Origin: Actinomycetota bacterium
GTDB lineage: Bacteria > Actinomycetota > Actinomycetes > S36-B12
Assembly (NCBI GenBank): GCA_030645615.1
Contig: JAUSNB010000015.1
Location: forward strand, 320,035 to 384,034
Reading direction: 5' to 3'
Length of the DNA: 64,000 nt
Every line of letters begins with the position of its first letter. The first letter of the stretch is position 1. A program made the position numbers. Below, piece by piece: positions 9,001 to 15,000 of this stretch.

Positions 9001-12000
9001 CGGGCGTGCCCGTGGTGTCGGAAGAGGACGCATCGCACGACGCCGACCGGCCCGCGACTTACTGGCTGATCGATCCCATCGACGGCACGGCGAGCTGGTC
9101 GGGAGGCCACCCCGGTTTTGTGTGCCAACTGGCGCTGATCACGGCGGGGGTCGTCGAGTTCGCCGCCATCCACGCGCCGGTCCTCGGCTTGACGTGGACG
9201 GCGACGCGGGGGCAAGGGGCCTCGCTCAACGGCGAGCGGCTGCCCGACCGCGCCCCGGCGGGCGACCCGGTCGTCGTCGTCGACAACTATCCCGAGCCCA
9301 GAGGGGTGTGCGAGCGGGTCATGCGGTGGCTGGGCACCGAGTCTTACGTCGAGTCCGGGAGCATCGGCCTCAAGGCAGCCCTTGTCGCGAGCGGTCGCGC
9401 GGACCTCTTCGTCAAGGATGTGGTGGTGCGCGACTGGGACGTCGCCCCGGCTCTGGCGATCATGCTCGAGGTCGGCGGCTTCACGAGCCGGCCAGGCGGC
9501 GCGGCCTTTGCCCTGTCGGGCGACTACGAGAAGCGTGACGGCGTGGTCTTCGCAGCGGACTCGGCCCTCGGCCAGCGGGTGGCGTTGTGGATGGCTACGG
9601 CCTGAGCCGCGCGCCGTGTAGCCGTTCCGCGAGGAGCCAGTCGTCCTCGGTATCGATGTCCACGACGGCGCCGACGGCGAGCGGGTACCCCACGGCGTTC
9701 GGGAGGATGGGCTGTCCCGCCAACCATGCGCTGGCCCGGCCCCAGTAGAACTGCCCGGCGTCGTGCCAGCGGGCGGGGAGGTCCTGCGTACGCTTCGCCA
9801 GCCCCTCCGGGTCGACGGGGGTGAGTTCGCCTTCAGTCCCCAACTGCAGAGCGCGTTGGATCGGGTGGGGATAGGGCACGACCGCAGCGGCGTAGGGGCG
9901 GGTCGCGGCTTCCAGCAACTGACGCGCGCCGACCAGGTCGTCCGTGGTCACGAAGATGGCTGCGGGGTAGAGGCAGCACACAAGATCTGCCACCAGGCCG
10001 CGCTCCCGCATGTGAGACGCGGCGTGGGCGATGACTGAGGCGGTCGAGGCGTGGTCGTCCGCGAGGGAGGCGGGACGGCGGAACGGCACGGACGCGCCGC
10101 TCGATTCGGCGATCGTGGCGATCTCGTCGTCATCGGTGGAGACGACCACCTCGTCGAACTGGCCCGACGCCAGCGCGATGTCGATCGCCCAGGAAATGAG
10201 GGGCCGACCGGACATGTCCCGGACGTTCTTGCGGGGGATGCGCTTGGAGCCGCCGCGGGCGGGAATGACGGCCAAGGCCTGTGGCACGTCTCGGCGCGGG
10301 AGCACATCCGCGACAATAGCCGCACACCCGAGGCACGAGACGGAGGGCGGATCCATGACGCAGCGACCAGTGGGCGGCGCGGCGCGCCCCTACCGCGGTG
10401 TCGTGCACGTCGATGTCGGCTGGACCTCGATGCCCAGCCTCCTCCGCTCCCTGCGACCGGGGACAGAGACGTGGTACCTGCGCAGCCGGATGCGCTCCAG
10501 GGCGGGCAGGGCACTCCTCGCCGTCGTAGGTGCCCGACAGGTCGATCTCGACATCGTCGACGACCTTCCGGTCGGCCCGGAATCCACGGAGGGCCCCATG
10601 CTCCGGGCGATGGCCGCCCTGGACCTGGCCGACCTGACCCCACTGACCGACTGGTTCGCTCGCGACTTCCCGCTGGCTGTGAACGCGTCGGGCATGCTCA
10701 GGTCCCGGATTCACCAGGCGTTGGCCGAGCGAGCGCTGGACGCGTTCTATGCCGAACTGTGGTCCAGGGCACGGGGCTTCCATGAGACGGTGTTCGTGGG
10801 CTCAACCCCGTGGGACCGATTGCTGCTCACGGACGCTGCCCGCGGCATGACCGAGGCTGGAGCGGCGTCCCGGGCGCTGGCCGCGCTCGCCGCCCTGGTG
10901 CCGCGGCGTCGCCAGCATGGCTCAGTCCAACCGGCCGCAGGCTCCGCCGTGGATGCCCCCGCAACGCCGGACATCTCCTCCCCCGGTCCTGATCAGCCCC
11001 ATGGTTTGCCGGAGGTCCTGCTGGTCCTGAATCAAGGCCGTTCCTACGGTGCGCTGTACGCGTACGACCATGTCATGAGCCCGGATCCGCGTTCGCCGCT
11101 GCATCCCGGGCGGATGGCTGTCATGGCGAGAACCGGCGGTCCCTCGAACCCGGAGGGGATTGCCCATGGGTACCCAGGCATTGGGAGCAGGCGGGGCAGG
11201 ACGCGCGACTCCCTTAAGCGGGCGTGGAGCGCACGCCGGCATACGGGCCGTCGGTATGCCTGGGCCTACGTGCACCTGCTGGCCAAGACGTGCGCGATTG
11301 CCGCGGTGCAGCGCCCCGAGCTAGAGACAACCTTCCCGTCGGTGCGGGTAGCGGTTCTCGCGTACGAACTGCAGGTCCCGGTGGCGCTGGTGCTGGCCCT
11401 GGAAGCCGCTGGCGTACGGACCGTAGCCCTGAACGAGCGTCCGTTGTCCGTGGTGATTGCGACCCAGCCGTTCGCGATGTCATGCCTGCTCACCGCCAGC
11501 GCGTACTTCTCGGAGCGCGCTCTGGGGTCGACGGGCATCGCCGTCGCACGAGCAGAAGCGGTCGGCATGTGGCGGACCGACTTTCTGCGGGGATTCAGCG
11601 GTGACTCGGCCGTGGGCGCGGCCGCAACGGCGCGGGCGAAGGGGCGCAAGTTCGTCGTGGTCCTGCCGTACCACCACGTCGCCGGAGCAGGGCTTGTCGG
11701 AAACCCACTCGCCACGTCCCGATCGTCAGTGCGCCACTTCCTCACCGAGATGCTGGAACTGGCCGTCGAACGGCCCGACCTCCACCTGGTGATCCGGGGG
11801 AAGAACGCCGATTGGCTCGTGGACCCGCAGTTCGCGGACCTTGCTACGCGCTGTGCCGAGATCGACAACGTGGAGGTCAGCACGGAGTACTCGCGAATGA
11901 ACGAGTCGTATCGACTGGTGGCCAAGGCCGACCTCGTCATCGCCAAGTACACGTCGCTCGTCGATGAGGCGCTCGCCATCGGCATCCCGTGCGTGGTTCA

Positions 12001-15000
12001 CGACTACACGACAAATGCTCGGGGAGTCGCGCGGGCCGTGGTCGAGTACCTTCCCGAACAGGTCTGGGCCACCAGCCGACCTGAACTGCTGAGCCGGATA
12101 GACGACGCCCTTGTCCGGGATGGCGACGCCTTCCGGGAGTCCTGGGAGCCCATTCGCCACCGGGTCTTCGGGACTCTGAACGACGGATCAGTGCGTGAGC
12201 GGGCGAGGGCGGCAATCACTCGGCTAGTTTCGTCCCCGGACTAGGGAGAGTGGTTACATGGGTTTCCTGGACGATGTGTTCCGCCCGGCAGTGGGCCGGA
12301 CCGCGGAGGCAATCGACTGGTCGGTGGCCGAGCGGATCGTGAACGCGCTCGCCGAGGTTCGCGCACGGGGGGGTCGCGTGTTCATCCTCGGACTCGGCGG
12401 CAGCGCGGGGAATGCAGGCCACATGACCAACGATCTTCGCAAGCTGGCGGGGATCGAGGCCTACGCACCTACCGACAATGTCTCGGAGCTGACTGCCCGC
12501 ATCAACGATGACGGCTGGGGCCAGGCCTTCGTGGGCTGGCTCAAGGTCAGCCGGCTCGGCCCGGACGATGCGGTCTTCGTCCTGTCCGTCGGCGGCGGCG
12601 ACGCCGACCGAGGGGTGAGCCCCGAACTGGTCCACGCGGTCGACCACGCCCGCCACGTCGGTGCCACTGTCATGGGCATCGTTGGTCGGGACGGGGGGCA
12701 CACGGCCCGCTTGGGGGACCACGTCGTGGTCATCCCGACCGTCGACCGAGGCCTCATCACTCCCCTCTCCGAGGCCTTCCAGGCCGTTGTCTGGCATGGC
12801 CTGGTCACCCATCCCGATCTGGCATCCGCCACAGCCCATTGGGAGAGCCTGGAGGCTCGGTGAGTCCCGGCCGGCGGGTGGCGTTCCTTGACCGGGATGG
12901 GGTGGTCACCGTGCCGCAGGTGCTCGACGGCAAGGGGTTCGCGGTGCGTCGGGTGGACGAGCTGCGGCTGTACGACGACGCCGCCGACTCCGTTGCCCGA
13001 TTGGCGGCCCACGGCTTCGACGTCGTTATTGTCACGAATCAGCCTGATTTGTCCACCGGATTGATCGATGACGAGGAGCTCGCGGCCATGCACAGTCTGC
13101 TGGCCCGGCGCTTGCGGCTGACGTCGATCCGGGTGTGCCCTCACGTTCGCGAGGACGCCTGCGGCTGCAGGAAGCCGGCTACGGGAATGCTCCTCGCCGA
13201 GGATGCCGCCTCCCCCGTCGACTGGGCCGCGAGCTGGATGGTCGGCGACCGCGACAGCGATGTTGCGGCGGGTCTCGCTGTGGGCTGTCGCACCGTCTTC
13301 ATCGAACGGGGCTGGCGTGCCGAAACCGGCGGCTCAGCGCACGTCATAGCGTCGACGCTGGCCGAAGCCGTGGACACTATCCTTGCCTCATGATTCCCCC
13401 CGGAGCATCGGTGACCGCGTGATCCCTGCCATCAAGGTGTTCACGGACGCATCGACCATCCCCGAGGTCAGAGGTTATGCCTCCGAGCCGTGGGTTTCGG
13501 GGTTCACGACCAACCCCACGCTCATGCGCAAGGGCGGGGTGACGAACTACCGCGAATTCGCCATCGAGGCCATCGAGGCGGCTGAGGGAAAGCCGCTGTC
13601 ACTGGAGGTCGTCGCCGATGACCTGGTGACCATGACGAAGCAGGGGCTGCTTCTCGGGTCCTGGGGATCCAACGTCAATGTCAAGATCCCCATCACGACG
13701 ACCTCTGGCCAGTCTTGCCTGCCGGTCGTCCGGGAGCTCCTGGATGCGGGAGTCGACGTGAACGTAACCGCGATGATGACCGATGGCCAGGTGGCCGACC
13801 TCGTCGAGATCCTCGGGGACGACGATGCTGTCTTCGTGTCGGTCTTCGCCGGCCGGATCGCGGATGCTGGCATCGACCCTGTCCCGGTCATGAAGCGGTA
13901 CGCCCAGTGGCTCGAGCCCTTGCCCAAGGCCGAGCTGCTCTGGGCAAGCCCGCGTGAAGTGCTCAACATCGTGCAGGCGGCAGAGTGCGGCTGCGACATC
14001 ATCACGGTCACGCCTGATCTCCTGCGCAAGCTCGACCTCCTCGGCAAGGACCTGGCGGACTTCTCTCTGGAGACCGTGCGCATGTTCTACGACGACGCCC
14101 TTTCGGCGGGGCTCGAGATCTCCTGACCGTCAGTGCCCTACGAAGGAGCAGCATGAAACTCACGCGCGTGCTTGTGACCGGCGGCGCCGGCTATGTCGGC
14201 AGCCTGCTTGTGCCGCAACTGCTGGCGGATGGCCACGAGGTCACCGTGTACGACACCATGTACTACGGTCAGGACTTCCTGCCAGTCCAGGATCCACGCC
14301 TGCACGTGGTCACCGGCGACATCCGAGATGCGGACCTGTTCGGGCGGACGGTCACCGGTCATGACGCTGTGATCCATCTGGCCTGCATCTCCAACGACGC
14401 GAGTTTCGAGCTCGACGAGGACCTCTCCACATCCGTCAACCTGCACGCCTTCAGGCCTCTGGTGCTCGCGGCGAAGGACGCCGGTGTCCGCCGGTTCATC
14501 TACGCCTCGTCGAGTTCGGTCTACGGGGTGTCCGACAGCCCCGACGTGACAGAGGAGCACCCGCTCGTCCCACTGACGCTGTACAACAAGTACAAGGGCG
14601 AGTGCGAACCCATGCTGCTCGAGGAGCTCACGGACGACTTCGTCGGGGTCATCATCAGGCCGGCGACCCTGTGCGGCTACGCATCGCGTCAGCGCCTGGA
14701 CCTGTCCGTCAACATCCTCACCAACCATGGCTACAACAACGGCGTGGTCAAGGTCTTCGGTGGGTCGCAGATGCGGCCTAACCTCCACGTCAAGGACATG
14801 GTCGAGGCCTACCGCGTTCTGCTCGCGGCCGAGGACGACGTGATCCAGGGCGAGACCTTCAACTGCGGGTTCCAGAACATGTCGATCGCCGGGATCGCCG
14901 AACTGGTTGCCCAGATCGTGCCGAGATACCGGCCTGAGCTCGGTGAGCTGACGATCGAGACGTCGCCCAGCGACGACCTGCGCTCCTACCACGTGAACTC

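Follow-up and report, generated by a model that had tools for sequence, protein, structure and literature searches.

The stretch of DNA considered here, referred to as the window, comprises 64,000 nucleotides of contig JAUSNB010000015.1 (positions 320,035 to 384,034; assembly GCA_030645615.1) and derives from the metagenome-assembled genome (MAG) of an Actinomycetota bacterium. Gene calls with Pfam matches and our own hidden Markov model (HMM) scans concordantly describe the whole window, which has a G+C content of 66%, as a single glycan-biosynthesis island. It contains exactly three genes of the CTP_transf_3 type, encoding PseF, a NeuA-like and a KdsB-like cytidylyltransferase, and near each of them lies an open reading frame (ORF) to which no Pfam model applies, designated ORF1, ORF3 and ORF2, respectively (Table 1). 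On balance, we consider it probable that these three proteins are glycosyltransferases (GTs) of the GT-B fold, each dedicated to the ulosonic acid that its neighbours activate with cytidine monophosphate (CMP). The evidence is best for ORF2 and poorest for the donor of ORF1.

The pairing of each cytidylyltransferase gene with a nearby unassigned ORF had been proposed in a first-pass annotation of the sequence, and both the coordinates and the arrangement were borne out. The same DNA is found on two contigs of the public assembly Logan SRR13727526, whose independent gene calls yield identical ORF coordinates, and in NCBI the three products appear under the locus tags Q7V58_04970, _05140 and _05150 of an Actinomycetota MAG, annotated as hypothetical proteins. 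With the 230-aa call for pseF, 67 bp separate this gene from the divergently oriented ORF1, so that the two abut without being co-transcribed. ORF2 follows the KdsB-like gene on the same strand after a gap of 31 bp, and ORF3 is the third gene past the NeuA-like gene, starting 8 bp beyond an aminotransferase gene. The G+C content at third codon positions of the three ORFs (0.77-0.88) is usual for coding sequence in this window.

Table 1. Genes and modules of the window (strand: +, forward; -, reverse; NBD, nucleotide-binding domain; TMD, transmembrane domain).
Feature	Position	Strand	Evidence and remarks
Fused TMD-NBD ABC exporter	39-1790	+	ABC_tran, E 6e-27; 74 hydrophobic windows
PseB	1846-2823	+	NCBIfam, 480 bits
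PseC-like	2828-3955	+	NCBIfam PseC, 392 bits
PseG with formyltransferase-like C-terminal domain, one fused gene	4000-6162	-	TIGR03590, 245 bits; without Pfam match
ATP-grasp	6830-7789	+	Pfam context
PseI/NeuB	7786-8823	+	NCBIfam NeuB, 329 bits; PseI, 284 bits
Inositol-monophosphatase-like	8823-9605	+	Pfam context
pseF, CMP-pseudaminic acid synthetase	9595-10287	-	TIGR03584, 258.6 bits (cutoff 205.7); 230 aa
ORF1	10355-12244	+	629 aa; GT-B-fold protein by structure model; unnamed family
Heptose-type module	12258-17741	+	GmhA-like SIS, HAD phosphatase, transaldolase, two epimerases/dehydratases, HldE-like kinase/nucleotidyltransferase
Legionaminic-acid-like module	38038-45346	+	Upstream of ORF3; includes the NeuA-like gene
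NeuA-like cytidylyltransferase	42283-43002	+	CTP_transf_3; PseF model, 136 bits
ORF3	45355-46491	+	378 aa; unnamed family
ORF2	47542-49395	-	617 aa; TIGR04326 family; GT-B-fold protein by structure model
KdsB-like cytidylyltransferase	49427-50203	-	NF003952, 235 bits (cutoff 193)
HpcH/HpaI-type aldolase	50200-50973	-	HpaI-like, 179 bits; upstream of ORF2, same strand

At the level of sequence, the three proteins stand apart from the classical transferase families, as had been claimed at the outset. No Pfam model reaches threshold in ORF1, ORF2 or ORF3, and scans of their family members (30 for ORF3, 65 for ORF2 and 78 for ORF1) likewise give no model at threshold and none that recurs. These family-wide scans reject membership in the TagF, KpsS/C, sialyltransferase, Maf, GT1 and GT4 groups. 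When every ORF of the window was searched with HMMs of the three families, no further paralogue emerged; a tblastn search of 72,556 plasmids gives no match to any of the three, and none of them contains a convincing transmembrane segment.

The description of all three as orphans holds for Pfam and CAZy-type models and has to be given up for ORF2. When the NCBIfam models named 'surface carbohydrate biosynthesis protein' were consulted, ORF2 was found to match one of them, TIGR04326 (O_ant_LIC13510), almost from end to end, with residues 34-610 aligned to positions 11-601 of the 602 in the model, at 249.8 bits (E 4.8e-74), i.e. 0.2 bits below the cutoff of 250. Its relatives in the JGI and NCBI databases carry the same label. 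Because of this end-to-end match, ORF2 is not a true orphan, and judged by its sequence it may in practice be regarded as a member of a named, uncharacterised family; ORF1 and ORF3 do not match this model. A literature search for TIGR04326, TIGR04396 and TIGR04417 found no characterisation, and for TIGR04326 neither an assigned function nor a structure. A genome paper does no more than mention that a gene of this kind lies downstream of neuABC (PMC6679464).

The AlphaFold2 model of ORF2 is confident (pLDDT 88.2, pTM 0.90) and gives 194 Foldseek matches in the PDB at E<=1e-3, of which 50 were listed; these are GT-B enzymes, among them CalG3, LanGT2, SnogD, SpnG, VldE, OtsA, MurG and OGT, with E values from 4e-8 to 1e-5. 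In an alignment of 65 of more than 233 family sequences (A3), the N-terminal half has the invariant residues E346, N347, E351, H371, R380, E426 and R429. Past the second strand of the C-terminal domain follows the motif (K/R)-P-H491-P, whose His is present in 65/65 sequences, and S530 opens the next helix. In two relatives of ORF2 (P0075 and P0089), a complete TIGR04326 domain (residues ~9-638) is fused to a C-terminal GT2 domain, an arrangement like that of two-module polysaccharide polymerases. These fusions point to glycan assembly. ORF2 is a candidate transferase for the ulosonic acid activated by the KdsB-like enzyme.

ORF3 matches neither Pfam nor NCBIfam, apart from weak flavodoxin-like matches at its N-terminus. 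The invariant positions of its family, in an alignment of 30 sequences (A2), are D181, D202, H208-P-D210, A-A-H248-P-R250, S286/T287, P298, K355 and W365, and the A-A-H248-P-R motif is present in 30/30 sequences. Two of the 30 members weakly match TIGR04326. In a profile alignment (hhalign -mact 0.05), residues 30-377 of ORF3 align with residues 206-617 of ORF2 over 328 columns (E 1.4e-4, probability 53%), and the two have in common a C-terminal Trp, a TTxRF motif, the His-Pro (HP) motif and an S-T/S-S turn. The first ~200 residues of TIGR04326 have no counterpart in ORF3. From these profile comparisons we conclude that ORF3 is probably a short, distant relative of this family, and it is treated here as a candidate nonulosonic acid (NulO) transferase.

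ORF1 belongs to a large family with at least 564 cluster representatives in an exhaustive HMM search (E<=1e-3), which at its wider margins is linked, weakly and sporadically, to TIGR04417 and TIGR04396. Its AlphaFold2 model (pLDDT 85.2, pTM 0.86) gives 112 Foldseek matches in the PDB at E<=1e-3. The 50 listed are almost all GT-B enzymes, including uridine diphosphate N-acetylglucosamine (UDP-GlcNAc) 2-epimerases, BshA, PimB', SPINDLY, TagF and TarL (E 1.6e-7 to 1e-5), with target TM-scores of ~0.5-0.6; one match is a respiratory complex I subunit. A diverse alignment of 78 sequences (A4) has the invariant or near-invariant positions E361/R362, G404, R407/D409, R481-x-K483, Y519, S534 and E538. 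The genes for pseudaminic acid (Pse) synthesis are complete without ORF1, and because PseB, PseC, PseG, PseI and PseF are all present, ORF1 is not needed for making CMP-Pse. It does not match the PseG model TIGR03590, and its identification as a missing PseG was rejected, PseG being a separate gene. ORF1 stands as a candidate Pse (or heptose) transferase.

Recent paralogy of the three proteins can be rejected, as BLASTP among them gives nothing beyond a single 29-residue match between ORF2 and ORF3 (E 0.007). Profile-profile comparisons weakly connect all three through a C-terminal beta-alpha-beta segment, with E values of 3.6e-4 for ORF2-ORF3, ~4e-3 for ORF1-ORF3 and, for ORF1-ORF2, 1.3e-3 over 243 columns and up to 3.8e-2 in another comparison. 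We conclude that ORF1 forms a family of its own whose architecture is that of ORF2 and ORF3. The C-terminal pattern that had been seen in all three proteins is thus real; it is weak in sequence, and ORF3 lacks its Asp and Glu. The proposed GT-B-like nature is confirmed at the level of structure models for ORF1 and ORF2, because their confident AlphaFold2 models match GT-B structures in the PDB. Profile searches with the three families against PDB sequences gave no meaningful match.

The three ORFs keep their company across related loci (denoted by L numbers). In the TIGR04326 family, a CTP_transf_3 gene lies directly upstream in the window and in L006, L011-L013 and L014, at 26-46% identity to ORF2. 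The entire module recurs in L006 (46%), and in L011-L013 and L014 (26-30%) the upstream gene overlaps or abuts the TIGR04326 gene amid genes for an HpcH/HpaI aldolase, HAD protein, 2-hydroxyacid dehydrogenase and epimerase. In L006, L011 and L014, TIGR04326 genes are likewise preceded by the pair of KdsB-like and HpcH/HpaI genes, and in L005 a TIGR04326 gene lies within 3 genes of a second cytidylyltransferase. The ORF3 homologue of L005 is found 3' of genes for CBS-DegT, AP_endonuc_2, NeuB, short-chain dehydrogenase/reductase (SDR), CTP_transf_3 and an aminotransferase. A 28%-identical member lies in a classic cluster of the legionaminic acid (Leg) type already equipped with Epimerase_2, NeuB, CTP_transf_3 and a PtmE-like nucleotidyltransferase, next after which comes a flippase-like gene, and L033 and L037 provide more ORF3-family examples near NeuB/NeuA-like genes.

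For ORF1, related loci were scanned with a close alignment of only 17 relatives from a word-indexed search (A1), which gave 2 genome loci and 28 metagenomic loci. An ORF1 homologue has pseF beside or near it in five genome or assembly loci, and L003, L004, L007 and L008 count among the loci with a conserved ORF1 neighbourhood. Among the 22 of the 28 metagenomic loci that exceed 5 kb, a cytidylyltransferase homologue is present in the flank of 16, and at least one Pse/NulO gene in 20. The neighbour of members with 31-37% identity is a Pse cluster in L025 and a NeuB/NeuA-like module in L028 and L030. ORF1-like and ORF3-like genes occur together in L033, L037 and L041, where they are adjacent in L041 and surround one NeuB/NeuA-like module in the other two. 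This co-occurrence implies that two GT-B orphans can serve one NulO pathway.

Within their syntenic blocks, the orphans are the least conserved genes. ORF1 has 45% identity to its counterpart in L008 (PseB 97, PseC 93, PseI 95 and PseF 81%), ORF2 has 46% in L006 (AroB-like, i.e. DHQS-like, 92, SDR 91, GFO 81, KdsB 64 and GT2 58%), and ORF3 has 41% in L005 (NeuA-like 57, aminotransferase 60 and NeuB 40%). Such fast divergence fits acceptor-specific transferases, not core pathway enzymes, and suggests a transferase step that is diversifying in a serotype-like manner.

Transfer of CMP-ulosonic acids is supported by the conserved neighbourhoods, the HP motif and S-T/S turn of ORF2 and ORF3, the TIGR04326-GT2 fusions and this fast divergence. 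In these respects, the earlier proposal of dedicated CMP-sugar transferases or polymerases is supported in part; it cannot be extended to an identified donor sugar. In the mechanism that we propose, the three proteins would be soluble or peripheral in the cytoplasm, each coupled to one supply line of CMP-ulosonic acid: ORF1 to CMP-Pse, probably an N-formyl variant, ORF3 to a Leg-like NulO from the NeuB/NeuA-like module, and ORF2 to a 3-deoxy-ulosonic acid that the HpcH/HpaI-type aldolase would make and the KdsB-like enzyme activate. The C-terminal Rossmann domain would bind the CMP-sugar, its phosphate being held by the residue after the second strand of this domain (the His of (K/R)PHP in ORF2 and of AAHPR in ORF3; R481/K483 in ORF1) and presumably touched by the invariant Ser/Thr that opens the helix after the fourth strand. 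The N-terminal domain would bind the acceptor and may provide the base through invariant acidic, His and Arg residues (E346/E351/H371/R380 in ORF2, H178/D181/D183/D202 in ORF3, E361/R362/R407/D409 in ORF1). The acceptor and these catalytic roles are what we infer from conservation. The products would be ulosonic-acid-containing glycans of the cell envelope, exported perhaps by the ATP-binding cassette (ABC) transporter with which the island begins.

Several observations weigh against this assignment. The hhalign probabilities for the links between families are low (1-53%), and the structural matches are generic for the GT-B fold, comprising non-transferases as well, with UDP-GlcNAc 2-epimerases at the head of the ORF1 list. 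Among the 50 Foldseek matches listed for each of ORF1 and ORF2, there is no sialyl-, 3-deoxy-D-manno-octulosonate (Kdo)- or Pse-transferase, and none of the three ORFs has a conserved [DE][DE]G, the D/E-D/E-G motif of sialyltransferases. For ORF3, the GT-B fold is a prediction from remote sequence homology to the ORF2 family, so that this part of the initial claim is less direct than for the other two, and the protein could instead fill the Epimerase_2 (LegG-type) gap of its own module. ORF1 lacks the HP motif and has R481-x-K483 (R-G-K) at the aligned position, a pair which we take to resemble the diphosphate-binding pair of GT4 enzymes that use nucleoside diphosphate (NDP)-sugars. In six longer loci of the ORF1 family no cytidylyltransferase was detected in the available flank, and a heptose module often adjoins the ORF1 homologue. 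For all three proteins the donor sugar is an assignment by inference, and no result identifies it.

These last points bear on a reading in which the proteins are GT-B enzymes of the same glycans that use NDP-sugars and act on or next to the ulosonic residue, ORF1 being a heptosyltransferase for the nucleotide-heptose of the adjacent module. The heptose module lies directly 3' of ORF1 or its homologue in the window, L003, L007, L017-L019 and L035, and within ~1-7 kb in L027, L033, L037 and L038; its presence in an Actinomycetota genome, and its recurrence next to many ORF1 homologues, are observations in their own right. The invariant R481-x-K483 and E538 in place of HP, the weak similarity to Glycos_transf_1 (GT4; E 0.015), the GT4 enzymes BshA and PimB' among the top structural matches and the position of ORF1 as the sole recognisable GT within the window's first 23 kb would all fit such a function. 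We nevertheless regard it as unlikely, since every locus with the heptose module has a Pse/NulO gene, and ORF1-family members accompany Pse or NeuB/NeuA modules in L025, L028, L030 and L023, where queries limited to the window proteins detected no heptose genes in the flanks. As to ORF2 and ORF3, their HP motif and close linkage with cytidylyltransferase genes speak for a donor that is a cytidine nucleotide.

A second alternative assumes that one or more of the proteins, especially ORF3, is a GT-B enzyme of sugar-nucleotide metabolism, i.e. a hydrolysing 2-epimerase of the NeuC, LegG or PseG type or an NDP-sugar hydrolase. ORF3 has the size of NeuC (378 aa), and it might take the epimerase role for which its module has no Epimerase_2 gene; a LegG/NeuC-type Epimerase_2 is absent from the called genes of both the window and the L005 Leg-like modules. 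Its AAHPR is presumably akin to the motif His-Pro(-Arg) with which 2-epimerases bind nucleotides. For ORF1, the best structural matches are UDP-GlcNAc 2-epimerases (WecB, MnaA, NeuC; 1f6d and 7vza, E ~2e-7, target TM ~0.6), and Epimerase_2 (PF02350) weakly matches 5/78 family members, with 11.8 bits against a cutoff of 30.6 for ORF1 itself. However, ORF1 is ~250 residues longer than these epimerases, the Pse pathway requires no epimerase and lacks no such step next to ORF1, and PseG is already encoded in the same cluster. An ORF3 homologue is found in a cluster with its own Epimerase_2 gene, the Epimerase_2 HMM matches no ORF2- or ORF3-family member even at E<=0.5-1, the orphans diverge far faster than the pathway enzymes around them, and the TIGR04326-GT2 fusions point elsewhere. 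Taken together, this makes an epimerase or hydrolase function rather improbable.

Less probable still, in our judgement, is a role as TagF-like polymerases or phosphotransferases which would build a processive, phosphodiester-linked or homopolymeric chain of the teichoic- or teichulosonic-acid type from a cytidine-activated substrate. Like TagF and TarL (Glyphos_transf), such enzymes would be GT-B-like and use cytidine nucleotides, and both are among the ORF1 structural matches (3l7j, E 6e-6; 8va1, E 7e-6), a resemblance confined to the fold. There is weak HMM similarity around the HP-type strand, in ORF2 (PF04464, 11 bits against a threshold of 22.1, E 0.2) and in 4/78 ORF1-family members (best E 8.3e-5), the large size of ORF1 and ORF2 exceeds a minimal GT-B by ~250 residues, and the window encodes an ABC exporter, while gene calls and scans reveal no Wzy-type polymerase. 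Yet these scores lie far below threshold, which no family member reaches, and a CMP-ulosonic acid donor would lead to glycosidic instead of the phosphodiester linkages expected of TagF and TarL. Processivity cannot be read from sequence, and the proposal amounts to a sub-case of the dedicated CMP-ulosonic acid transferases favoured here.

The neighbouring pathways offer further observations. The ABC exporter keeps its place beside PseB in L007, L008, L025-L027 and L038. On PseG, a formyltransferase-like domain stands where the usual PseH acetyltransferase would be, and because of this fusion the Pse of the island is suggested to be an N-formylated variant; in relatives (L003, 1946-3526), a PseG-GNAT fusion is accompanied by a PIG-L deacetylase. 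The fused gene had been considered as a fourth orphan GT and was ruled out as such by its identification as PseG with the formyltransferase-like domain. The Leg-like module comprises AP_endonuc_2, a CBS domain with LegC-like aminotransferase (LegC family 321 bits), NeuB (383 bits), SDR, the NeuA-like gene, a GFO oxidoreductase and a HemL-like aminotransferase (PRK06209, 586 bits). Its odd parts are the fusion of CBS to the LegC-like aminotransferase, the xylose-isomerase-like AP_endonuc_2 protein and the HemL-like aminotransferase.

A conserved module at 49427-56309, also present in L006, L011 and L014, contains no KdsA- or NeuB-type synthase. In addition to the KdsB-like enzyme and the HpcH/HpaI class II aldolase, it encodes an SDR, a GFO oxidoreductase, an epimerase, a 2-hydroxyacid dehydrogenase and a GmhA-like SIS protein, as well as a match to TIGR04425 'AroB-related sugar phosphate phospholyase (cyclizing)' (424 bits). 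It has the look of a pathway, so far undescribed, to an ulosonic acid activated with CMP, and a literature search for a pathway combining HpcH and a cytidylyltransferase found no description. A bolder and more tentative extension, towards which we remain somewhat sceptical, is that the three ORFs found new families of CMP-ulosonic acid GTs, with ORF1 as a pseudaminyl or nonulosonyl transferase, ORF3 as a minimal nonulosonyl transferase and TIGR04326 acting on an aldolase-made acid, which would jointly assemble teichulosonic-acid-like polymers. The acid of TIGR04326 would then be widespread and undescribed, a pyruvate-dependent HpcH/HpaI aldolase replacing the KdsA/NeuB-type synthase, and the host would be an uncultured Actinomycetota.

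Elsewhere in the island, the run of genes at 23039-37900 includes at least 7 methyltransferase genes, a split transketolase (28760-30533, - strand), a DUF6016 protein and a carbamoyltransferase (36194-37900), which is suggestive of sugars that are heavily methylated, carbamoylated or branched-chain. Amid these sugar-modifying genes lie three ORFs with no Pfam match, 25137-26321 (-, 394 aa), 30530-31426 (-, 298 aa) and 34204-35184 (+, 326 aa), which the family-profile search of window ORFs found to be unrelated to the ORF1 to ORF3 families and which could be further unrecognised transferases. At 57442-63714 (+), two genes of the asparagine-synthase/GATase type (635 and 611 aa) precede two GT4-type glycosyltransferases; amidation of a uronic or ulosonic acid is a possible role for the former. 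A GT2 and many aminotransferases, epimerases and methyltransferases complete the island.

Transfer of Pse, Leg and Kdo-like acids is the least known step in the assembly of bacterial "sialic-acid-like" glycans, and the recently solved examples, GT99, GT107, GT118 and GT140, each founded a CAZy family. If the assignment of ORF1 to ORF3 to CMP-ulosonic acids is true, up to three further families would be added, one of them already widespread as TIGR04326. It would also give handles for making Pse/Leg glycoconjugates by chemoenzymatic means, rules by which hundreds of "hypothetical" glycan-island genes could be annotated, and a pointer to an undescribed aldolase-based pathway to CMP-ulosonic acids. 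At present, the three proteins form a well-supported list of candidates with predicted activities.

Of the resemblances to known systems suggested in the first-pass annotation, that to TagF is seen, along with one to TarL, in the ORF1 structural matches; support is lacking for KpsS/KpsC, sialyltransferases and Maf, which appear neither in the HMM scans nor among the top 50 structures. The Capsule_synth HMM does not match the three ORFs or any family member, the sialyltransferase Pfam models give no match to them or their families at E<=0.5-1, and the same holds for Maf/DUF115 in the Pfam scans. The HP motif of bacterial sialyltransferases (GT38/GT52/GT80) is nevertheless found in ORF2 and ORF3, and not in ORF1. 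As to possible products, teichulosonic acids are known from Actinobacteria (PMC13011467).

A functional parallel is offered by the Pse/Leg transferases of Tannerella forsythia, GT-B/TagB-like proteins with an HP motif which are encoded just downstream of the CMP-NulO loci and for which there is genetic evidence of transfer (PMC5420450). Tanf_01245 and TFUB4_00887 (NF046086, the BFO_1060 family) thus share locus placement, GT-B character and HP with the proteins described here. They differ in sequence, as ORF1 to ORF3 do not match NF046086, which is matched by one distant ORF1-family member only (E 5e-4), as well as in length (445 aa versus 378-629 aa) and in the DXD and D/E-D/E-G motifs, which ORF1 to ORF3 lack. 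A second comparison concerns the retaining CMP-ulosonic acid transferases with a modified GT-B fold, i.e. GT99 (WbbB), GT107 (KpsC), GT118 (KpsS1, for Pse5Ac7Ac) and GT140 (KrkA), each of which was founded as a new CAZy family owing to negligible sequence similarity (PMC12887879). Ulosonic acid GT families are still being added on the basis of divergent GT-B proteins such as those studied here. None of them is among the 50 Foldseek matches listed for either ORF1 or ORF2, whose models resemble canonical GT-B enzymes (GT1, GT4, GT20, GT28 and epimerases) and not the reduced type with a displaced N-terminal domain. The fold and the general idea are known; the families described here are uncharacterised, one being named (TIGR04326) and two unnamed.

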